NCBI GenBank assembly: GCA_963726575.1 | Contig: CAVSCR010000003.1 | Span: 226,518 to 290,517 of the forward strand | Direction of reading: 5' to 3' | DNA: 64,000 bases | From: an uncultured Actinomycetota bacterium | GTDB taxonomy: Bacteria > Actinomycetota > Actinomycetes > JAHEKZ01 | In this document: positions 13,214-52,241 of the stretch, piece after piece | Numbering within the stretch: position 1 is the first letter of the stretch | How the letters are laid out: every line of letters begins with the position of its first letter | Translations under genes and position numbers: made by a program | Notes under the pieces: generated by a model | The model's input: the letters and a program-made list of their open reading frames with translations, nothing else | Databases searched by the model: none | Told to the model about the DNA's origin: nothing

Positions 13214-13287
13214 GACGTCCTCCCTTGGGCCAGAGCGAAGGGCCCTCGCCGGCGCATCGCGCCAGGCGAAGACCCTTCGACAGAACG

Positions 13288-13360
13288 TAGCCCCGACCGG
13301 ATTCGAACCGGCGCTACCGCCTTGAGAGGGCGGCGTGCTAGGCCGCTACACAACGGGGCC
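13288..13360 (-). tRNA. tRNA-Glu (anticodon CTC)
   Basis: The reverse complement GGCCCCGTTGTGTAGCGGCCTAGCACGCCGCCCTCTCAAGGCGGTAGCGCCGGTTCGAATCCGGTCGGGGCTA folds as a cloverleaf. Anticodon loop CTCTCAA, T-loop TTCGAAT. Confidence 0.85.
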
Positions 13361-13402
13361 GTACACAGGTCGACCGCTCCATCTGGGGAGCGTTCGGATC
13401 CG

Positions 13403-13474
13403 CTGGGGTACCAGGACTCGAACCTAGACTAACGGAGCCAGAATCCGTCGGGCTGCCAATTACCCCATACCCCA
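13403..13474 (-). tRNA. tRNA-Gln (anticodon CTG)
   Basis: The reverse complement TGGGGTATGGGGTAATTGGCAGCCCGACGGATTCTGGCTCCGTTAGTCTAGGTTCGAGTCCTGGTACCCCAG has a 7-bp acceptor stem, anticodon loop TTCTGGC and T-loop TTCGAGT. Confidence 0.85.
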
Positions 13475-35210: not shown

Positions 35211-36041
35211 ATGTTTCTGTCCACGTCCCGCGTCCGTGCTGCGGCTCTGGCCGCCTGCGCCGTGACGGTCGCGTTCGGTGGCGCGGCAACCGCCTCAGCC
35301 GGCGCGATGCCTGCGGCCCCGTCGCGAACCACTGCCGCCACCCGGGTCATCACCTTGGGGCAGACCTACGACATCCAGTTCGCCGGACGGCTGGACCGGA
35401 CGGTCCCCGCTGACGTCTTCGAGGTGGACGGCGTCGACACCCCGAAGTCCGTGGTCACGGACCTTCACAAGCGCGGCAAGATCGTCGCCTGCTACATCTC
35501 GGCCGGCTCGTGGGAGAACTACCGTCCCGACGCCGGGAAGTTCCCCCAACGCGTCCTGGGACGCACCCTCGCCGGCTGGCCGGACGAGCGTTGGCTGGAC
35601 ATCCGCAAGGTGCACGTTCTGATGCCGTTGATGAAGGCACGCATGGACGTGTGCGTGCGAAAGGGATTCGACGCGATCGAGTTCGACAACGTCGACGGGC
35701 AGTCCAACCCGACCGGCTTCCCACTGACGCGTGCCGAGCAGGTCCGCTATGACCGCGACCTCGCCCGCGCCGCGCACGCGCGCGGGCTACAACCGGGGTT
35801 GAAGAACGCGCCCGAGCTGATCCCCCAGCTGGTCAACTCCTTCGACTGGGCGCTGAACGAGCAGTGCGTGCAGTACTCCGAGTGCAAGCCGTACGAGGCA
35901 TTCATCAAGCAGAACAAGGCCGTGTTCGTACTCGAGTACAACGTGAGCGTCAAGAAGATGTGTGCAGTGACCCAACCGCTCGGGCTCTACGCACAGAAGA
36001 AGCGGCTGTCGCTCAATGCCTGGCGAGCCACCTGCCCCTGA
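35211..36041 (+). CDS. secreted glycoside hydrolase family 114 (endo-alpha-1,4-polygalactosaminidase-like)
   Basis: Signal peptide, then the GH114 hallmark CYISAGSWENYRPD and a TIM-barrel-like body (WLDIRKVHVLMPL...GFDAIEFDNVDG). Confidence 0.75.
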   Translation: MFLSTSRVRAAALAACAVTVAFGGAATASAGAMPAAPSRTTAATRVITLGQTYDIQFAGRLDRTVPADVFEVDGVDTPKSVVTDLHKRGKIVACYISAGSWENYRPDAGKFPQRVLGRTLAGWPDERWLDIRKVHVLMPLMKARMDVCVRKGFDAIEFDNVDGQSNPTGFPLTRAEQVRYDRDLARAAHARGLQPGLKNAPELIPQLVNSFDWALNEQCVQYSECKPYEAFIKQNKAVFVLEYNVSVKKMCAVTQPLGLYAQKKRLSLNAWRATCP

Positions 36042-36044
36042 CTG

Positions 36045-36449
36045 CTACCGCGAGTCACTCCTCCGGGCGGGCGCGCCCACCGGTTGCTCGGCGATCAGGC
36101 AGAACTGGTTGCCCTCCGGGTCGGACATCACCCGCCAGTTGAACCCGTACTCGGAGATGTCGCCGTCGGGCACGGTCCCGCCGCCGAAAGCCTGGACGCG
36201 TTGCGTTGCTTGCTGCAGATCGTCCACGACTAGGTCAACGTGCAACCGGTTCTTGCCCGGCGTGGGCCGTGCCACCCGGTGCAACGAAAGGGACGGGCCG
36301 CCGTCCACCGGCGTCAGGTTCACGTAGTGCGGCGGTTCTCCGTAAGTGACCTGTACGTCCGTACCCAGCAGCGCCGCCCAGAACTGTCCCAACCGCTGCG
36401 GGTCGACGCAGTCGATCTGGACGTAACCGAGCCGACCGACGCCGGTCAC
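36045..36449 (-). CDS. VOC (glyoxalase/bleomycin-resistance/dioxygenase) family protein
   Basis: C-terminal 134 aa of track ORF 36045..36854 ([29 protein letters not shown]...). The GTG start at 36449 overlaps the gatB stop (GTGA). The upstream part of the track ORF lies antisense within gatB. Confidence 0.7.
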
Positions 36450-37960
36450 GTCGTTGCCGTTCCCGCCCGCTCCAGCACGAGCTCGCGCACGCGAGCGGCG
36501 TCGGCCTGACCCTTCGTGGCCTTCATGACGGCACCAACCACCGCGCCGGCCACCTGAACCTTGCCCGCGCGCAACTTCTGCGCCACGTCGGGCTGAGCTG
36601 CAAGCGCCTCGTCGATCGCCGACAGCAGGGCTGAGTCGTCCGACACCACGGCCAGGCCCCGCGAGGCGACCACGGCATCGGGATCGCCGTACCCGTCGAC
36701 AACCGCCTCGATCACCTGGCGGGCGAGCTTGTCGTTGAGCGCACCCTCGCCGACCAGCGCGACGACGCGCGCCACCTGCGCAGGCGTGATCGCGAGCTCG
36801 GCGAGGTCCACCGTCTTCTCGTTCGCCAGTCGGGCCAGCTCCCCCATCCACCACTTGCGCGCCGAGTCGGCGTCAGCGCCGGCTTCGACGGTGGCTTCGA
36901 CGAGCTCCACCCCGCCGGCATTGGCCAGTGACTGCATGTCGTGGTCCGACGCGCCCCACAGCTCCTGCAGCCGGCGCCGACGCTGAGCGGGCGGTTCCGG
37001 CAGGGTCTCGCGCAGGCGTTCCACCAGGTCGGCCGCCGGAGCGACCGGGGTCAGATCGGGTTCGGGGAAGTAGCGGTAGTCCTCGGCTTCTTCCTTGCTA
37101 CGCCCAGACGTGGTGCTGCCGTCGGTCTCCATGAAGTGCCGCGTCTCCTGCACCACCTTCGCCCCGGTGCGGAGCACCGCGGCCTGGCGCTGGATCTCGT
37201 AGCGCACGGCCCGTTCCACTGACCGCAGCGAGTTGACGTTCTTCGTCTCGGTGCGCGTTCCCAACGTGGTCGATCCCTTGGGCTTCAACGACACGTTGGC
37301 GTCGACGCGCAACGAGCCTTGGTGCATGTGGGCGTCCGAGACGCCAAGAGCGACGATGAGGTCGCGCAGCTCGCCGGCGTAGGCCCGAGCCACGGTCGGT
37401 GCGATGACGCCCGGCACCTCGATCGTCTTGGTCACGATCTCGATCAGCGGAACGCCAGCACGGTTGTAGTCGATGAGGGAGTAGTCGGCACCATGGATGC
37501 GTCCCGTCGCACTTCCGACGTGGGTGTTCTTGCCGGTGTCCTCCTCCATATGAGCCCGTTCGATCCTGACTCGGACCGTCTGCGGACCGTCGTCGGTGGG
37601 CACCTCGACATCGAGATAGCCGTCGAAGGCGATCGGCTCGTCGTACTGCGACGTCTGGAAGTCCTTGGGCATGTCCGGGTAGAAGTAGTTCTTGCGGGCG
37701 AAGCGCGACCATGGCGCGATGGAACAGTTCAACGCCAACCCGATGCGGATGGCCGACTCCACCGCCTTCTCGTTCACGACAGGGAGTGAACCGGGCAGGC
37801 CCAGACACACCGGGCACACCTGGGTGTTGGGCTCGGCGCCGAACGCAGTAGGGCATCCGCAGAACATCTTCGACGCGGTGTTCAGCTCGACGTGGACCTC
37901 GAGCCCCATGACGGGGTCGAACTGCGCGATCGCGTCGTCGAACGGCACGAGGTCGGTCAT
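36446..37960 (-). CDS. gatB: Asp-tRNA(Asn)/Glu-tRNA(Gln) amidotransferase subunit B
   Basis: [21 protein letters not shown]...; full-length GatB. Confidence 0.95.
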
Positions 37961-39486
37961 CGCGCCCCACCGCCCGATCCGACTCCGAGCAGCTCTGGCG
38001 CGGATTGCAGCAACGGGCCGGCCCAGCGTTCGTGCAGCACGCGTTCCACGGCCGCTCCTACCCGATAGACGCGCTCGTCGGCCTGAACCGGCGCCATGAT
38101 CTGCAGGCCGACGGGCAAGCCGTCGTCGCCGAGTCCGGCTGGCAGGCTCATGGCCGGCCCTCCGTACAGGCTCGACGGCAACGTCGCGAGGTCAGCCTTG
38201 TACATCGCCACCGGGTCGTCAGCACGCTCGCCGATGCGGAAGGCCACAGTTGGAGTGGTCGGCGAGATGAGCACATCAGCCGATGCATAGGCGGCTTCGA
38301 AGTCGCGCCGGATCAAGGTGCGGACCTTCTGGGCCTGACCGTAGTAGGCGTCGTAGTAGCCAGCTGACAAGGCATAGGTGCCGAGCATGATGCGGCGCTT
38401 GACCTCGTCTCCGAACCCGGCTGCGCGTGTCTTGGCCATGACTTGTTCCACGCCGGCGTCGCCGTCGTCGCCGACCCGGAGCCCATACCGCATCCCGTCG
38501 AACCGGGCCAGGTTGCTCGAACACTCACTCGGCGCGATCAGGTAGTACGCCGCCAGGCCGTATTCGAAGTGCGGGCAGTCGACGGTGACGATCTCTGCCC
38601 CGAGATCGGCCAGCAACGAGACCATCTCGGTGAACCGCGCCTGTACACCGGGCTGATAGCCGTCGCCCTGCAACTGCGCCACGACGCCGATCCGCAGTCC
38701 GCTGATGTCACCGAGCTCACCACGTGCGGCGGCCACCACCGGAGGCAACGGCGCATCGATCGAGGTGGCATCCATCGGGTCGTGACCCCCGATCGTCGCG
38801 TGCAGCAGGGCCGCGTCGAGCACCGTGCGGGCGAACGGGCCGGCTTGGTCGAGTGAGGAGGAGAACGCCACGATGCCGTAGCGCGAGACACCGCCGTAGG
38901 TGGGCTTCACCCCGACGATGCCGGTGACAGCGGCCGGTTGTCGGATCGAGCCGCCGGTGTCGGTGCCGATCGCCAGCGGCGCCTGGTACGCAGCGACCGC
39001 AGCGCTCGACCCGCCAGAGGACCCACCAGGGATCCGGTCCAATGCCCACGGGTTGTGCGTGGGCCCGTAGGCAGAATTCTCGGTGGACGAGCCCATGGCG
39101 AACTCGTCCATGTTGGTCTTGCCGAGGATCACCACGCCCGCCTCGCGCAGCCGCGTGGTGACGGTCGCGTCGTAGGGCGGGATCCACCCCTGCAGAATGC
39201 GTGAGCCGCAGGTCGTGGGGATCCCCCGCGTCGTGAACACGTCCTTCAGGGCCAACGGGACACCGGCCAACGGGCCGAGCGGCTCGCCGTTGGCCAGCTG
39301 GACGTCGACCGCGCGAGCAGCGGCGAGCGCTCCCTCGCGGTCGACGTGCAAGAACGCGTGCAGCGACTCGTCGGTGGCCTCGATCCGTTCCAGGTGAGCG
39401 AGTGCGACCTCCTCCGCCGAGGCCGAACCGCCGGCCACCATCTGTGCCAGCTCGGCGGCGGTGGCCCTGGTCAGGTCGCCGCTCAC
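37957..39486 (-). CDS. gatA: Asp-tRNA(Asn)/Glu-tRNA(Gln) amidotransferase subunit A
   Basis: Amidase-signature [12 protein letters not shown]. Start and stop overlap gatC and gatB. Confidence 0.95.
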
Positions 39487-39794
39487 TGCTCCTCCTCGTC
39501 GAGGATGCGCGGCACGCGGAACCGACCGTCTTCGGTCGCCGGTGCCGCAGCGAGCGCATCGGCCTGGGCCAGCGATGGCCGCACGACGTCAGCCCTCGTG
39601 ACGTTGACGACCGGTACGGCGTGGGTGGTGGGCGGCACGTCAGCCGCTGCCACCTCTGCGACGCGGGCGACCGCCGACAAGATGACGTCGAGCTGCCCCC
39701 CGAGGTGGTCGAGCTCGGCATCCCCGAGATCGAGCCGGGACAGCCGCGCGAGGTGGGCGACTTGGTCGCGGGAGAGCGCAGGCATGGCGCTCAT
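39483..39794 (-). CDS. gatC: Asp-tRNA(Asn)/Glu-tRNA(Gln) amidotransferase subunit C
   Basis: 103 aa ([36 protein letters not shown]...). Confidence 0.9.
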
Positions 39795-39806: not shown

Positions 39807-41111
39807 TCACGGCCCCGCTTCCTGGCGTGGTCGCATCGTCGACGCCGTCTCAGGTGACCAGACTCGGATGCCGCCGCCTTCGGCCTTGGCCAGGAACATC
39901 GCCTGGTCGGCCCGGTGGATCGCCTCGTCGACCGACAGCGGCTCGGTTCGCGTGACCGTCACCAGGCCGACGCTCGCGCCGATCGGCAACGCAGCCTGGC
40001 CGAAGGGGACCACGCGCGACACCGATCGCACGATGCGTTCGGCGACGTCGACCGCATCGTGGGGATCTGGCCGGTCGGTGAGCAGCACGGCGAACTCGTC
40101 GCCTCCGTAGCGCGCCACGAGGTCGTCGCCGCGAACACTCGAGGCGATGCGCTCGGCCGTGGTACGCAGCACGGCATCACCGGCGAGGTGGCCATACCGG
40201 TCGTTGACGGCCTTGAAGCCGTCCATGTCAAGGACGAGAACGGCCACGGACTGGCGCCGCTGGATCGCCTCGGCCAGTCGGGCGAAGAACAGCCTGCGGT
40301 TCGCGACCCCGGTCAACGGGTCGTGCAACGCCTCGTGGTTGGCCGAGCGCGACAGGTCGTAGGTGCGCGAGAACAACAGCAGCGGCAGCAACAAGAGAAC
40401 CGGATAGACCGAGCCGGCCGCGGCGAGTACGACCACGACGAGAGCCAGCGTGTCGGCCAGCAGGTCGGCGACCAGATACCACCGCACGTTGGCGCTGAAG
40501 TCCTGGGCGAATGTCGGGCCCTCGGGGTCGGCCGCCAGCGCCACCAAGGTGTCGTTGACGACGAAGTGCGCCACCCACGTGGCGACCACCCAGCCAATGT
40601 CGTTCCACACGGGCAACTGCCCTTGGCCCATGGGAGCGCCGCCGAGCGCCATCATCACGGCGCCGGCTGCGCCCATGGACACGACGAACTGCGCGACGTT
40701 GAAGGCGACCTTCCAGCCTTCCTTCCCCTGGAAGACTGTTCCCAGGCCCCAGCTCACCGCGGTCACCACGATCGCGGGAGCCGGTCCCCACAGGTACAGC
40801 GCCGCGAACGCGAACGACTGGCCAAGGTGGATGGTCGTGGGCTGGGGGTACTGCAACACGGTGAGCGGACGCAGCTCGAAGAGCACCGCGCCGAGGAGGA
40901 TCAAGAAGAACGCTGGCGTCACGTCGTGCCAGCCTGCCCAGGTGATGGCGCGCACGAGCAGCACCGCAGCGGTCACCCAGACCGCGACCACGGTGACGCT
41001 GAACACGGAAACCCGACGCATCGACGCCGCAAACCCCCGCGGCACCTCAAGCGTCTGTCCCGGCTGACGAACAGCCGGTCCCACCATCGTCTTACCCCCC
41101 TGCCCCTTCAT
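39807..41111 (-). CDS. membrane-anchored diguanylate cyclase (polytopic N-terminal sensor domain plus GGDEF)
   Basis: About 6 TM segments (WKVAFNVAQFVVSMGAAGAVM...), then RYGGDEFAVLL and an intact I-site-like RxxD. The true start may be M9 or M31. Confidence 0.85.
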   Translation of the reverse strand: MKGQGGKTMVGPAVRQPGQTLEVPRGFAASMRRVSVFSVTVVAVWVTAAVLLVRAITWAGWHDVTPAFFLILLGAVLFELRPLTVLQYPQPTTIHLGQSFAFAALYLWGPAPAIVVTAVSWGLGTVFQGKEGWKVAFNVAQFVVSMGAAGAVMMALGGAPMGQGQLPVWNDIGWVVATWVAHFVVNDTLVALAADPEGPTFAQDFSANVRWYLVADLLADTLALVVVVLAAAGSVYPVLLLLPLLLFSRTYDLSRSANHEALHDPLTGVANRRLFFARLAEAIQRRQSVAVLVLDMDGFKAVNDRYGHLAGDAVLRTTAERIASSVRGDDLVARYGGDEFAVLLTDRPDPHDAVDVAERIVRSVSRVVPFGQAALPIGASVGLVTVTRTEPLSVDEAIHRADQAMFLAKAEGGGIRVWSPETASTMRPRQEAGP

Positions 41112-41138
41112 GTGTGCGCCCGCCCACTCACGGGATTC

Positions 41139-43265
41139 CTACCAACCCCCGGCCGTTCCTTGAACCAGACGCAGCGAGCGATGCCGTGACGGATGCCGCA
41201 GCAGCCACCGCGTGGCCTGCTGGGCGTCCATCGGCCGGCTGATGAACCAGCCCTGCGCCACGTCGCAGCCGAGCTCGCGCAGGCGGTCCCACACCGCCTC
41301 GTCCTCGACCCCTTCGGCCACGGCGATCATTCCGAGGCCGTGGCTGAGCTCGACGATCGAACGGACGATCGTGAAGTCGGCGGGGTCGTTCGTCAGCCGT
41401 CCGACGAACGTCCGGTCGATCTTCAGCTCGTCCACGGGCAGGTGCTTCAGCCACTTCAGCGACGACTCACCGGTCCCGAAGTCGTCCAGCGAGATGTGCA
41501 CCCCGAGGCGACGCAGCTCCGACAAGGTGGGCGTCACCGGTGCAGCGTCCTTGGTGAGCACCCGCTCGGTGATCTCGAGCACGAGCGCGGCCGCCGGCAG
41601 GTCGTACAGCTCCAGGGAGCGGGCCACCGTCTGCTGCAGCTCGGGACCCTGCAGGTCGCGCATGGACACGTTGACCGCGACCGAGATGTCGAGTCCGGCC
41701 GCGCGCCACTGCGCCACCTGCGCCAAGGCGGTCTCGACGACGAAGGACGTCAAGGTGCCCATCAGCCCGGAGTGCTCGGCGATCGGGATGAACTCGTCGG
41801 GCATGATCAGGCCACGCGTGGGGTGTCGCCAGCGAACCAGTGCCTCGACGCCGGTCACGTCCGACGTGGCCAGCGACAGCTTGGGTTGGTAGTGCAGCTC
41901 CAGCTCGCCGCCCTCGAGCGCCGTGCGGAGCCCACCCAGCAGGGCCAGGCGGTTGGCCGAGTTCGGATCGCGGTCGGCGGCGTAGATCTCGACCCCGGTG
42001 CGACTGTCCTTGGCGAGGTACATGGCGACGTCGGCTCGCTGCAGCAGCTGTTCGCCGTCGACGCCGTGCTCGGGGAACATCGCGACGCCGATGCTGGCTT
42101 CCAGCTCGAACAGCAGTCCCTCGAGGTGGAACGGCGTCACCAGAGCAGCGCGGACCCGGTGCGCCACCTCCACCGCGGCCTGGTCATCGCGGATCGGCGC
42201 CAGCATGAGGGCGAACTCGTCACCGCCAAGGCGAGCGACCAGGTCACCGGGTCGCAACGCCGACTGGATCCGGCTACCGGCCAGCTGCAGCAGCCGGTCC
42301 CCGACGTGATGGCCGAGGGTGTCGTTGACCTCCTTGAACCGGTCGAGGTCGAGCAGGCACAGCGCGGCACGGTAGCCGTCGCGGCTGCAGTCGTCGAGGG
42401 CGTCGCCGAGCCGTGCCAACAAGTACTTGCGGTTCGGCAGCTGGGTCAACGTGTCGTGCAGCGACGCATGTTCCTTCTCGCGCGAGATCGACGCCGTCTT
42501 GCGCACCGCGATGAGCGGCAGGATCCACAGCGGCAGGTACAGCGGCTCGGCGGCCGAGAACACGACCAGTGGCGACAGAGCCAACACCGCCATCGTGGTC
42601 AGGAAGTAGTACCAGAAGTCATCGAAGAAGTCCTGGACGAACGTGCGTCCCACGTCATCGGACAAGGTGGCGACCAACACGTCGTTGGTGACGAAGAACG
42701 CCAGCCAGCCGAGCACGATCCAGATCAGTGACGAGGCAACGAGCGCGCCCGGCTGCTCCAAGGACGCCTGGTGGCCGGCGAGCTCCATGACGGCGGCCGC
42801 TGCCGCCAGGCTCAACGTGTACTGACCGACGTTGAAGAACCACTTCCACACCGGCTTGCGACGGCGGGCCTCGGAGATCAGCGTGCCCACGGCAAGCAAG
42901 GTGATGGCAGGCCAGGGCCCGTACAGGTACAGCACGGCGAACACGAATGCGTGCGACGTGACGACCCCTTGCGGGTCGGAGCTGCCCGCAGCGATGACCG
43001 GCCACAGCTCGCCGAGGATGACCAGCGCGGCCAGACCCCAGAAGGCCTTGGCATCGCTGGGCGGGGTGTGCGCAAGAGCGGAGACGGTCTGGGCCAGCGC
43101 GAAGACGACCAGGAGCCCGCCCGCCCACACCGAGAGGTTCCAGAAGAACGCGAACCCCGACGGTCGGACCAGCGATGGTCGACGCGATGACGCGGCCACG
43201 GCCCTCCCCAAAGCGCCTCGGCAGGTCTTTCCCCCTGACGCTACAAAGAGTAGCCCCGTAAGCAC
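41139..43265 (-). CDS. membrane-anchored GGDEF-EAL protein (diguanylate cyclase / c-di-GMP phosphodiesterase), paralogous N-terminal membrane domain
   Basis: The N-terminal TM domain is homologous to the upstream gene (WKWFFNVGQYTLSLAAAAAVM). It has RLGGDEFALML (GGDEF) and EALVRW...DDFGTG...ELKIDRTFV (EAL). Confidence 0.85.
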   Translation of the reverse strand: MLTGLLFVASGGKTCRGALGRAVAASSRRPSLVRPSGFAFFWNLSVWAGGLLVVFALAQTVSALAHTPPSDAKAFWGLAALVILGELWPVIAAGSSDPQGVVTSHAFVFAVLYLYGPWPAITLLAVGTLISEARRRKPVWKWFFNVGQYTLSLAAAAAVMELAGHQASLEQPGALVASSLIWIVLGWLAFFVTNDVLVATLSDDVGRTFVQDFFDDFWYYFLTTMAVLALSPLVVFSAAEPLYLPLWILPLIAVRKTASISREKEHASLHDTLTQLPNRKYLLARLGDALDDCSRDGYRAALCLLDLDRFKEVNDTLGHHVGDRLLQLAGSRIQSALRPGDLVARLGGDEFALMLAPIRDDQAAVEVAHRVRAALVTPFHLEGLLFELEASIGVAMFPEHGVDGEQLLQRADVAMYLAKDSRTGVEIYAADRDPNSANRLALLGGLRTALEGGELELHYQPKLSLATSDVTGVEALVRWRHPTRGLIMPDEFIPIAEHSGLMGTLTSFVVETALAQVAQWRAAGLDISVAVNVSMRDLQGPELQQTVARSLELYDLPAAALVLEITERVLTKDAAPVTPTLSELRRLGVHISLDDFGTGESSLKWLKHLPVDELKIDRTFVGRLTNDPADFTIVRSIVELSHGLGMIAVAEGVEDEAVWDRLRELGCDVAQGWFISRPMDAQQATRWLLRHPSRHRSLRLVQGTAGGW

Positions 43266-43343: not shown

Positions 43344-46569
<3,226 letters not shown>

Positions 46570-46573
<4 letters not shown>

Positions 46574-47244
46574 GACTGGGTCCGGACGAGCTGCGTGCGG
46601 ATCAGGTGGGCGTACAACTGTCCGCCGCGCGTGGACAGGTGGTAGCCGTCGGGGGCGAACACTCCCGGGTGGTGGCCCGCGAACGCGCGCCAGGGCACCA
46701 ACGAGACGTTGGGATAGCGCCGCGCGCAGGTCTGGATGACGTGGTTGTCCGCTGAGGTCCACGAACGGGGGACCCGCACCGTCACCAGCAGGAGCTGGCG
46801 CGCTGATCCCAGTGACTGGTGCAGCTCACGGCAGGCGTAGCCGGGGAACTGTCCGTTCGTGCCGAGCCCGACGACGACGGTACCGGGAAGGCGACCGGTG
46901 CGTGCCAGATGCCGGACGACCCTGAGTCCGGCGTACACCTGACGGCTCTCCACGGCGTCGACCCGACCCGGCAGATGACGCAGCCACGGTCGCGCGCCGA
47001 GCATCACCGAGTCGCCCAGGAACAGCGTGCCGGGCAGACGTGCGGGCGTGGCTCGCGGCCCGGCGACAGGGGGCACTGGCGTGAGACCGGTCGTACCGGC
47101 GTCCGACGCGACGCGTGGAACACCCGCGGACAGGACCGACATCACCGGCGTTGCCCGCCTCGCCCCGTCGTCCGACCCCACCGCTGCGGCCAGGAAGGCT
47201 GCTGCGGCCAGCGCCACCGTCGCCAACGCCGCTCCCCGCTTCAT
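46570..47244 (-). CDS. SGNH/GDSL hydrolase family protein with N-terminal signal peptide
   Basis: Signal peptide MKRGAALATVALAAAAFLAAAVG, then the GDS motif LFLGDSVMLG. Confidence 0.6.
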
Positions 47245-49529: not shown

Positions 49530-50678
49530 CTACTGCTTCGCCAACGGCCCGTACTCGCGTTCCAGAGCACGCAGGAACAGCGAGGCGGGAAGGGCCGAAC
49601 CGTCATAGGACCAATGGAGGCCATCGCTTTGGCGCGCGTCGATCCGCTTGCCGTGGTAGGCCTCGCTGCGCGAGTAGCGCCCGCGGTCGGACGTGCCGTT
49701 GAACAGGTCGACCCAGCGGGCGCCCGGTATCGCGGCCGCCGCCTGGGCTCCCGCCGCATTGATCGAGGCGAAGATGCGCTGGTAGTTGCTCGACGGGGAC
49801 GTCGGTGGGCCGCCGTAGTAGACGCGGTCGACTCCGCCATGGAGGAACGTCTGCATCACCACTGCGATGCGGCGGGCGTACTCGCGCTGCCACGCCGGCG
49901 TTGCCCAGGCCAACGTCGCCCCGTCGTGCTTCATGTCCCACCCGTCGTTGGCACCCATCACGACCATGACCACGTCGGGGTGCAGGTCTGACACCAGGTT
50001 CTGCGCGGCTACCTGCCAGTTGAACGATCCGGGGGTGGTGAGCCCCGTCCCGTTGAACCCCTTGACGGTCACGTGCACCTTCGGACCGGCCAGGTTCGCC
50101 AGCTGGTCTCCTGGGTACGTCGCGAGGGAGTCACCGGTGACGAGCACCCTGAGGGGATGGCTGGTGGTGGGTGGGTGGATCTTGGTGATGCCCCCCACGT
50201 CCTGCGGGTACAGCGGCGGCGGCTGCTGGTGGGGGTGTCGACTCCTACCCGAGGCGCTGGCCGACGGGACCGCATGTGGGGTATTGAGGATGGAGTCGCT
50301 GCCGTTCTCCAGCGCGGTGTTGGCGGCGACGTAGGACTGGTGGCCCAGCGCAGCGTCAAGAGCCGAGCGTGGTGCCGTGAGTCCGACCGTGTGCGCGAAG
50401 GAGTTCACCGGCCCGGCGAGCGCGAGAACCACCGTGCGGGTGACGCCGGGGTCCATGCCCTCGCCCTTGCGCAGCACCGACTCGGAGTTGAGCAACCACG
50501 CGACCGCGAGCGCGAGGAAGACAGTGGCGATCGCCTGGCCGGCCGGGACTCGGCTGGCTCGCGTGTGCGCCGCTGGATGCTCGACCTCGTCGATCCAGCG
50601 GCGCTCGGGAGACGCCTGGTCGGACGTCTGCGTCGACGTTTCGGCCGGCATCTGGGTCGCACTCATGGGTGACTGCAT
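49530..50678 (-). CDS. membrane-anchored SGNH/GDSL-type hydrolase or acyltransferase (DltD/AlgX/PatB-like partner of the MBOAT protein)
   Basis: N-terminal TM anchor (AIATVFLALAVAWLL), then VLVTGDSLATYPGD (GDS block) and a later DGxHW block (QSDGLHWSYDG). Confidence 0.6.
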   Translation of the reverse strand: MQSPMSATQMPAETSTQTSDQASPERRWIDEVEHPAAHTRASRVPAGQAIATVFLALAVAWLLNSESVLRKGEGMDPGVTRTVVLALAGPVNSFAHTVGLTAPRSALDAALGHQSYVAANTALENGSDSILNTPHAVPSASASGRSRHPHQQPPPLYPQDVGGITKIHPPTTSHPLRVLVTGDSLATYPGDQLANLAGPKVHVTVKGFNGTGLTTPGSFNWQVAAQNLVSDLHPDVVMVVMGANDGWDMKHDGATLAWATPAWQREYARRIAVVMQTFLHGGVDRVYYGGPPTSPSSNYQRIFASINAAGAQAAAAIPGARWVDLFNGTSDRGRYSRSEAYHGKRIDARQSDGLHWSYDGSALPASLFLRALEREYGPLAKQ

Positions 50679-50720: not shown

Positions 50721-52241
50721 TCAGAACCGGAAGTAGAGGAACGGTGCGACGCCTTGCTCGGGCAGGATCGCGTCGATCAGGACGAGCACGACTGCGAACA
50801 GCAGGCCCTGCGCCCACCAGGGCAACCGGGAGACCCGAATCTCGATCTCGGCCCACATCCGTGGCGGGATGAACTGGGTGCTCAAGCCGGCGACGATGGC
50901 AGCCGCAACCGGCAGCGTCACCAGCGGCGCCGGTCCGAAGTCACCGATCCGACTCAGCAGCTGGACGGCGACGGCGAAGGTCGGTGACCGGAAGAAGACC
51001 CAGGCGAACGTGACGAAGGCAAACGTGAGGATGACCGCGAGGGCCTTGGGCAGCCCTCCGGCGACTCGGCGTTCGACGACCGCCTGCGCCCCCGTTCGCT
51101 CGCGGTAGGCCTCCTGCGCAGGGTCGAGCCCGACGGGCACGGCCGCGACGTCGACGGTCTCGCGCAGGACCGGAGCGCGTCGTTGGCGCATCTGGTTGAC
51201 CCATCGCTCGACCGAGAGGCCGACTCCGTGCAGACCGCCCCAGACGACGAACGTCAACGATGCACCGTGCCACAGCCCGCCGAGCAGCATGGTCGCGAAG
51301 AGGTTCACGTAGGTGCGGACACCGCCTCGGCGGTTGCCACCCAACGGGACATACAAGTAGTCACGGAGCCAGCGCGACAACGACATGTGCCAGTGGCGCC
51401 AGAACATCTGCAGGCTCGATGCCGCGTAGGGGCGGTCGAAGTTCTGCGGGAACCGGAAGCCGAGCAGCAGGGCGAGTCCGATCGCGATGTCGGTGTAGGC
51501 CGAGAAGTCGCAGTAGATCTGCACCGAGTACCCGATGAACGCCGCGATCACTTCGGGTCCGCTGTGCAGATCTGGCGTGCCCCACACCGGATCGACGAGC
51601 TGGGTTCCGATGTAGTCGGCCAGCACGATCTTCTTGAACAAGCCGCCAGCAATCAGGAACAGCGCGGGCGTCATCGGCACGGCACGCGGATCGTGTCGCA
51701 GCTGCAGCTGCGGGATGAACTCGCGCGGCCGCACGATCGGACCGGCCACGAGGTGGGGGAAGAACGACTGGAACACGGCGAAGTCGAGGAAGCCCACCGG
51801 CGCGAAGTCCCCGCGGAAGGTGTCGACCACGTAGGCGATCCCCTGGAACGTGTAGAACGAGATGCCGATCGGCAACACGATCATCAACAACGGAAGCGGC
51901 GCACCCAGCTGGACCTTGCCGAGGGCCTCGTCGATCTGGTGGGCGAAGAAGTTGAAGTACTTGAACCAGCCGAGCAGACCGAGATCGATGCTCACCGCCG
52001 CGATGAGCCACGCGCGTCTGGCGCGCGAGCTCGTTGACTTGCTCACTTGGACTGCGCCCACCTGGTTCACGACCGTGACGGTCGCCAGCAGGATCGTCAG
52101 CCAGGGATCTGCGTAGCCGTAGAAGAAGTACGACGCAGCGAGGATGAACCACTTCCACGCGCGCTGGTGCGGCAGCAGCAACCAGTTGACGGCGAGTACC
52201 ACCGCGAAGAACGCGGCGAACTCGATGGTGGGAAACAGCAC
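50721..52241 (-). CDS. MBOAT family membrane-bound O-acyltransferase (AlgI/DltB/PatA-like)
   Basis: 506 aa polytopic protein with the conserved MBOAT His (FWRHWHMSLSRWLRDYLYVPLGGNRRG). Confidence 0.85.
   Translation of the reverse strand: MLFPTIEFAAFFAVVLAVNWLLLPHQRAWKWFILAASYFFYGYADPWLTILLATVTVVNQVGAVQVSKSTSSRARRAWLIAAVSIDLGLLGWFKYFNFFAHQIDEALGKVQLGAPLPLLMIVLPIGISFYTFQGIAYVVDTFRGDFAPVGFLDFAVFQSFFPHLVAGPIVRPREFIPQLQLRHDPRAVPMTPALFLIAGGLFKKIVLADYIGTQLVDPVWGTPDLHSGPEVIAAFIGYSVQIYCDFSAYTDIAIGLALLLGFRFPQNFDRPYAASSLQMFWRHWHMSLSRWLRDYLYVPLGGNRRGGVRTYVNLFATMLLGGLWHGASLTFVVWGGLHGVGLSVERWVNQMRQRRAPVLRETVDVAAVPVGLDPAQEAYRERTGAQAVVERRVAGGLPKALAVILTFAFVTFAWVFFRSPTFAVAVQLLSRIGDFGPAPLVTLPVAAAIVAGLSTQFIPPRMWAEIEIRVSRLPWWAQGLLFAVVLVLIDAILPEQGVAPFLYFRF

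Follow-up and report, generated by a model that had tools for sequence, protein, structure and literature searches.

A predicted diguanylate cyclase gene in tandem with an rmdB-like gene between ligA and gatCAB in an uncultured Actinomycetes lineage

Why do two genes for membrane enzymes of cyclic di-GMP (c-di-GMP) metabolism lie between ligA, the gene for NAD-dependent DNA ligase, and the amidotransferase genes gatCAB in contig CAVSCR010000003.1 of an uncultured Actinomycetota bacterium? The genes are found in a stretch of 64,000 nucleotides (nt) that was analysed as a whole and is termed here the window. D1 is the membrane gene with a GGDEF domain only, and D2 is the membrane gene with both GGDEF and EAL domains. 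An earlier reading of the letters alone (the original prediction) described them as a pair inserted at this place, and both are indeed present there on the minus strand. Known biology accounts for most of the finding, namely rmdB in a conserved place and a sensor of the MASE9 type. What is new is D1, a predicted cyclase paralogue that is specific to the lineage and kept in tandem with rmdB. The reading favoured here, with a probability of about 0.62, is that D2 is the RmdB phosphodiesterase and D1 an old cyclase paralogue, and that the two are co-expressed as a make-and-break pair in which each enzyme has its own sensor.

D2, D1 and the rmdB position

Synteny was surveyed with one genome per species; loci are labelled L001 etc. 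and proteins P0001 etc. The order ligA-[TM-GGDEF-EAL]-gatC (TM, transmembrane), with a full-length D2 homologue that includes the membrane domain, is found in approximately 30 actinomycete loci. It is present in Nonomuraea, Actinomadura, Microbispora, Microtetraspora, Actinocorallia and Nocardiopsis, and also in Frankiales, Mycobacteriales and Streptosporangiaceae metagenome-assembled genomes (MAGs). D2 has 62–75% amino acid (aa) identity to its orthologues in related lineages, and an Actinomadura viridis protein named RmdB by NCBI is 50% identical to it over 648 aa. In S. coelicolor, SCO5494 is LigA (PMC3610822) and SCO5495 is rmdB, given as 6TM-GGDEF-EAL (PMC7911125). D2 has the layout of the RmdB group, a polytopic membrane domain followed by GGDEF and EAL in about 700 aa, and it adjoins ligA as SCO5495 adjoins SCO5494. 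Because of this layout, the ligA adjacency and the 50% identity to a protein named RmdB, D2 is read from sequence and gene order as the positional orthologue of Streptomyces rmdB, in the place between ligA and gatCAB that is ancestral in actinomycetes. The description of an inserted pair thus does not apply to D2 and holds for D1 only, which is an addition. For annotation purposes, a c-di-GMP gene that separates ligA from gatCAB represents the normal actinomycete state, rmdB, and is no oddity.

Pfam matches in D2 are to GGDEF (E 5.9e-45) and EAL (E 8.7e-74). The GGDEF domain reads RPGD-LVARL-GGDEF, with the RxxD motif at canonical spacing, and the EAL domain has the motifs EALVR, NVS, EITE, DDFGTG, KID, EGVE and QG. 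The motifs quoted in the original prediction, WKVAFNVAQF and WKWFFNVGQY in the membrane parts, GGDEF in both proteins, and EALVRW, DDFGTG and ELKIDRTF, can all be read directly in the translations.

A 2026 study of RmdB gives eight predicted TM helices (28–232), a GGDEF domain at 258–421 and an EAL domain at 426–670 (PMC13232838). RmdB is a phosphodiesterase in vivo and a global c-di-GMP sink; its GGDEF domain binds sigma-WhiG, a non-catalytic protein-binding role, and in two-hybrid assays it acts as a hub that contacts several diguanylate cyclases (PMC13232838). Several points weigh against a simple transfer of these properties to D2. Its orthology to RmdB rests on synteny, architecture and the annotation of the source proteins. 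The GGDEF motif of Streptomyces RmdB is dispensable, and intact motifs are therefore no proof of activity. Loop 6 of the D2 EAL domain reads DDFGTGESSL, with Glu replacing the residue that is Tyr or Trp in most orthologues; in the orthologue comparison this Glu is common only to D2 of the window and its closest relatives, L082 and L084.

A second, unrelated GGDEF or GGDEF-EAL gene is present 5–8 kb downstream of gatC in the Streptosporangiales loci L012, L015 and L023–L026, and it has no MASE9-like domain. The cdgC gene of Streptomyces coelicolor, SCO5511, comes 16 locus tags past rmdB (PMC7911125). The Streptosporangiales gene beyond gatCAB may be the counterpart of cdgC.

D1 is 434 aa when read from the first ATG. 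A start at Met31 (position 41021) would give 404 aa, and this is the probable start, as the 404-aa relative P0153 indicates. The GGDEF domain of D1 is matched by Pfam with an E of 4.6e-42, and an EAL domain is absent. The sequence reads RGDD-LVARY-GGDEF, so that RxxD is again at canonical spacing, five residues before GGDEF. D1 thus has both the GG[DE]EF active-site motif and the RxxD inhibitory site (I-site) of active cyclases. GGDEF is kept across the D1 clade with one exception, SGDEF in P0005, and RxxD is kept in six of the six aligned clade members. Because the GGDEF domain is intact and bears an I-site, and there is no EAL domain, the most likely role of D1 is that of a diguanylate cyclase inhibited by its product.

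The membrane sensor and its predicted fold

D1 and D2 align over 353 residues, from the membrane region through GGDEF, with 37% identity (E 1e-58). The membrane parts alone are 37% identical over 182 aa (E 4e-26, composition-corrected), with a profile-profile probability of 99.9%, and the homology is unbroken across the linker helix into GGDEF. The proposed homology of the two N-terminal domains is borne out by these alignments, which greatly exceed what chance would give.

The family to which these domains belong is not apparent from a direct Pfam search. The first ~250 residues of D1 and D2 have no Pfam match of any kind at E<=10, and this includes MASE9 (PF20972), a point that weighs against the assignment made below. 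An exhaustive profile search with both membrane domains as queries finds 1037 clusters at E<=1e-3, of which 380 remain at the stricter E<=1e-10. The original prediction had suggested that the same domain be looked for on GGDEF and EAL proteins of other genomes, and these clusters are mostly that: nearly all are ~410 aa (GGDEF) or ~690 aa (GGDEF-EAL), with occasional other outputs such as HD-GYP (P0148) and histidine kinase (P0158). Two family members, P0155 (30.1 bits) and P0156 (29.4 bits), score above the Pfam gathering score of 24.3 bits on PF20972, and P0153, which is 83% identical to D1, reaches 12.6 bits. Several GGDEF-EAL homologues have a precomputed PF20972 match. In an N-terminal alignment of relatives, 20 of the 39 sequences match MASE9 at E<=1 (best 3e-8). 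When compared by hhalign with the MASE9-positive members, the D1 clade gives a probability of 99.5% (E 3.8e-23) and the D2 clade 100% (E 4.8e-46). Residues F69, F106, N107 and N155 are near-invariant in the sensor-family alignment.

By this chain of sequence comparisons, the D1 and D2 membrane modules are assigned as divergent members of MASE9 that are beyond the reach of the current hidden Markov model (HMM). A comparison with MASE HMMs thus gives no direct match for either domain and a tie to MASE9 through relatives. The "uncharacterised membrane sensor module" of the original prediction is catalogued, and is uncharacterised in the functional sense only. It matches a well-characterised family in name only: to our knowledge MASE9 has no known ligand, and we know of no role of the Streptomyces RmdB transmembrane region other than one in protein stability.

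Galperin and Chou, who defined MASE9, describe a promiscuous membrane sensor of eight segments and propose that its ligand binds within the membrane; the outputs found were HD-GYP, HD-GYP-GAF-GGDEF and GGDEF-EAL, and HdgA of S. venezuelae is the sole member to have been studied (bioRxiv 10.1101/2021.11.05.467447). The AlphaFold models appear compatible with this description. The D1 model has a mean predicted local distance difference test (pLDDT) score of 93.4 and a predicted template modelling (pTM) score of 0.83; the membrane domain modelled alone has values of 91.1 and 0.88, and the two models agree. The helices are at positions 6–26, 29–33, 36–50, 67–78, 80–97, 102–125, 139–162, 171–202 and 205–232, with a short beta-hairpin at 53–64, and the last helix runs on towards GGDEF. 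The modelled sensor displays eight helical segments, of which two or three are short, in apparent agreement with MASE9 and RmdB, and not the six TM segments proposed for each protein at the outset.

The six-helix core of the sensor model superposes on solved S-components from transporters of the energy-coupling factor (ECF) type. The MASE9-type sensor is thus predicted to consist of the six-helix S-component fold with extra helical segments. A profile search of Protein Data Bank (PDB) sequences with the sensor finds nothing at E<=10, i.e., no sequence-level tie to S-components, and Pfam 5TMR-LYT has no match in the sensor domains of the window. The S-component fold has been described for 5TMR-LYT histidine kinases and MreD, and GGDEF and EAL are listed there among the output domains to which the 5TMR domain is fused; that paper mentions neither MASE9 nor RmdB (Partipilo and Slotboom 2024, PMC11109136). 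A transporter-subunit role is not claimed here for the sensor. The predicted fold is compatible with ligand binding within the membrane and suggests a small-molecule ligand. It is possible, as a tentative extension of the model, that the MASE9 domain of RmdB and D1 is a "transceptor" of the S-component fold with a vitamin-like or lipid-soluble ligand in an intramembrane pocket. If this were true, RmdB, a phosphodiesterase with a key role in the control of Streptomyces sporulation, would take a nutrient or cofactor signal as its input, and D1 and D2 would be a receptor pair with diverged ligand specificity and opposite c-di-GMP outputs. The modelled S-component-like fold of the MASE9/RmdB sensor provides a concrete, testable idea of the type of signal, and it is the most useful by-product of the analysis because it opens the input of RmdB-type enzymes to testing.

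Age, constraint and joint action of D1 and D2

In a neighbour-joining tree built from the membrane domain and GGDEF of the relatives, D1 groups with P0153, P0166, P0003, P0154, P0167, P0005, P0021, P0168 and P0169, apart from the RmdB-like proteins, to which it has only 30–38% identity. Out of 5.8 billion clusters in the database searched, about 10 belong to the D1 clade, all metagenomic or from MAGs labelled only "Actinomycetes bacterium". The score drops past the clade, from E 1e-115 to the E 1e-84 at which RmdB-like proteins set in. Every clade member with readable context has the order ligA-[GGDEF-EAL]-[D1]-gatC; these are six loci beyond the window, L081–L086. Identities to the window in the five loci with clean assemblies (L083 is left out because of frameshifts) are 96% for D2 and 84% for D1 in L082, 75% and 66% in L084, 67% and 57% in L085, 66% and 56% in L081, and 64% and 46% in L086. 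Since the tandem is shared by loci with D2 identities from 96% down to 64%, it is older than a considerable radiation. In the MAGs L001 (D2 63%) and L002 (D2 62%) the distance from the EAL gene to gatC leaves no room for D1, and the tandem has been lost in these neighbours or is younger than them.

The two loci nearest to the window, L082 and L083, are metagenomic. L083 (ENA ERZ25039488 contig_73500) is a close relative of the window, with ~94–98% aa identity in intact stretches, and has frameshifts in ligA, D2, D1, gatA and gatB. These look like an artefact of long-read assembly and not like real pseudogenes.

The two genes were described as a local duplication. They are paralogues, and this part of the claim stands, but D1 is not a recent duplicate: it is 34–37% identical to D2, vs 62–75% between D2 and its orthologues, and has its own clade in the tree. 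The sequence relationships indicate that D1 is an old paralogue, limited to one uncultured Actinomycetes lineage and held there in tandem with rmdB. It may have originated when the whole gene was duplicated and EAL was then lost, or when a duplicated sensor became joined to a different GGDEF domain. In a tree of GGDEF domains only, D1 is not nested in the RmdB type, in a comparison set that was pre-selected for similarity to D1.

The ratio of nonsynonymous to synonymous substitution (dN/dS) was computed between the window and L082. D1 as a whole has a value of 0.15, its membrane domain 0.16 and its GGDEF domain, the most constrained part, 0.08. The values for gatA and gatC are 0.095 and 0.117, and the comparison with these genes indicates that D1 is a functional gene under ordinary constraint and purifying selection. 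A pseudogene or decaying copy was considered and rejected, with an intact open reading frame (ORF) in seven loci and the dN/dS of 0.15. The cytosolic part of D2 has a dN/dS of 0.037; in the comparison of the window with L082 1–1398 it is 96% identical, vs 86–88% for gatA and gatC. By this measure (0.037 vs ~0.1), the RmdB-like D2 is unusually constrained, more so than its housekeeping neighbours.

The minus-strand order is ligA, D2, D1, gatC, gatA, gatB, with all genes tightly spaced and co-oriented. The gaps are 78 nt (ligA-D2), 27 nt (D2-D1, or 117 nt if D1 starts at Met31) and 12 nt (D1-gatC). No terminator-like site is found by a consensus scan of the minus strand from 45026 to 36309, and the first one is a hairpin past gatB. 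Because the genes are co-oriented, the gaps are 12–117 nt and no terminator-like site lies between them, D1, D2 and gatCAB are probably co-expressed, and ligA to gatB is perhaps a single transcription unit. A point on the other side is that an internal promoter may be present before D1 or gatC; all promoter and terminator calls come from the consensus scan, which is a weak tool.

In the favoured make-and-break arrangement, D2 (RmdB) would break down c-di-GMP at the membrane and D1 would make it, curbed by product inhibition at the I-site. Transcribed together with gatCAB, the two would form a membrane-located pair for synthesis and degradation. For each enzyme, gating would come from its own MASE9 domain by way of the last helix, which leads straight into GGDEF; a small ligand bound within the membrane would cause a change that is passed down this linking helix. 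The sensor domains are only ~35% identical and need not detect the same signal. Because of this low identity, different or subfunctionalised inputs for the two sensors are more likely than a single shared signal. D1 and D2 may plausibly be coupled physically, given the cyclase contacts reported for RmdB. The retention of D1 beside rmdB over a long time would represent a naturally occurring module in which synthesis is linked to degradation.

A stricter form of this coupling is that local duplication gave rise to an obligate hetero-oligomer of cyclase and phosphodiesterase, with both sensors answering one membrane signal. It accords with the homology of the sensor domains, with an adjacency kept in seven of the seven D1-bearing loci, and with the two-hybrid contacts between Streptomyces RmdB and several diguanylate cyclases (PMC13232838). 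We consider it unlikely: besides the low sensor identity of 34–37%, D1 has lost the Pro that is near-invariant in the LALSP motif of this family, the paralogues predate the split of lineages with RmdB proteins that are 64% identical, and the constraint on the two genes is unequal (0.15 vs 0.037).

The same difference in constraint can be taken to favour another function for D1, that of a non-cyclase regulator or receptor, e.g., an RxxD binder of c-di-GMP or a GGDEF-mediated modulator of RmdB or another partner. The precedent would be the binding of sigma-WhiG by the RmdB GGDEF domain (PMC13232838), and the SGDEF of P0005 points in the same direction. However, GGDEF, RxxD and the invariant residues of the GGDEF family are retained across the clade, and GGDEF is the part of D1 with the lowest dN/dS, so that this function is judged quite improbable. 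That D1 acts as an independent cyclase, placed by chance in a gap of a row of conserved housekeeping genes, its adjacency being meaningless, is very hard to credit: ligA and gatCAB are without a known c-di-GMP link and unrelated genes lie in rmdB-gatC gaps of 0.6–4.3 kb elsewhere (L004, L008, L020, L030), but D1 is a paralogue of its own neighbour and the tandem is kept in all clade members with context, over the whole range of D2 identity.

Gene row, neighbouring genes and known systems

The features of the locus and of the surrounding window are listed in Table 1. Rfam and tRNA scans have no hits in the D1/D2 region, and the only RNA genes in the window are two adjacent tRNAs. Just upstream of ligA is an ORF of 403 aa with a weak Meth_synt_2-like Pfam match, and its position is kept in most related actinomycete loci. 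A GH114 glycoside hydrolase gene is just past gatB on the opposite strand. Upstream of iscS-mnmA is a pair of genes for an MBOAT O-acyltransferase and a DUF459/SGNH protein, which is found in L081 too. A tie of these polysaccharide-related flanking genes to c-di-GMP control of exopolysaccharide is conceivable.

Table 1. Positions of the D1/D2 gene row, its domains and neighbouring features in the window
Feature	Position	Strand	Basis
tRNA-Glu(CTC) and tRNA-Gln(CTG)	13287–13474	minus	tRNA scan
GH114 glycoside hydrolase	35211–36041	plus	E 4e-73
Terminator-like hairpin past gatB	36291–36306	minus	consensus scan
gatB, amidotransferase subunit B	36446–37960	minus	NCBIfam equivalog
gatA, amidotransferase subunit A	37957–39486	minus	NCBIfam equivalog
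gatC, amidotransferase subunit C	39483–39794	minus	NCBIfam equivalog
D1, MASE9-like/GGDEF, 434-aa ORF, predicted diguanylate cyclase	39807–41111	minus	ORF, Pfam, clade alignment
D1 GGDEF domain, ORF residues 261–412, GGDEF motif and RGDD I-site	39876–40331	minus	Pfam, clade alignment
D1 membrane sensor domain, ORF residues 31–256, assigned to divergent MASE9, predicted ECF S-component-like fold	40344–41021	minus	
D2, 708-aa MASE9-like/GGDEF/EAL, putative RmdB positional orthologue	41139–43265	minus	ORF, Pfam, synteny
D2 EAL domain, residues 446–678	41232–41930	minus	Pfam; motifs read directly
D2 GGDEF domain, residues 269–422	42000–42461	minus	Pfam; GGDEF and RxxD (RPGD) read directly
D2 membrane sensor domain, residues ~36–265, assigned to divergent MASE9	42471–43160	minus	hhalign vs MASE9-positive relatives
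ligA, NAD-dependent DNA ligase	43344–45611	minus	NCBIfam NF005932, E 2e-236
403-aa ORF	45551–46762	minus	Meth_synt_2-like, E 1.7e-5
MBOAT O-acyltransferase and DUF459/SGNH pair	49530–50678 and 50721–52241	minus	

Three known systems can be compared with the locus. The ECF S-components RibU, ThiT, BioY, FolT and CbiM and the 5TMR-LYT receptors BtsS and YpdA share the predicted fold of the sensors. The sensors of the window differ from this class in that they have no detectable sequence similarity to it and no Pfam 5TMR-LYT match.

The second system is MASE9 (PF20972; Galperin and Chou 2021/2022), with T. maritima TM1467 as the founding member. Hallmarks of the family are eight predicted membrane segments, two of which cannot span the membrane because of their shortness, and conserved aromatic and Asn/Ser positions. 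The window domains are similar to it in the c-di-GMP outputs, and apparently also in the eight modelled helical segments, some of them short, and in conserved aromatic and Asn positions; GGDEF-EAL, HD-GYP and GAF-GGDEF are the outputs likened, and the family of the window overlaps the Pfam model. They differ in that they score below threshold and that their tie to MASE9 runs solely by way of intermediates and of profile-profile comparison. D1 has a simple MASE9-GGDEF layout, which is not among the architectures in the original description of the family.

The closest system is RmdB itself (SCO5495 / vnz25525). D2 differs from it in the non-Streptomyces host, in the Tyr-to-Glu change of loop 6 and in the paralogue D1 behind it; a D1-type paralogue at the rmdB locus is without counterpart in the other actinomycete genomes examined. 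D2 is like RmdB in architecture and size, with a membrane domain of ~240 aa in a protein of ~700 aa, and likewise in its ligA adjacency, its intact EAL motifs and its NCBI-named RmdB homologues.

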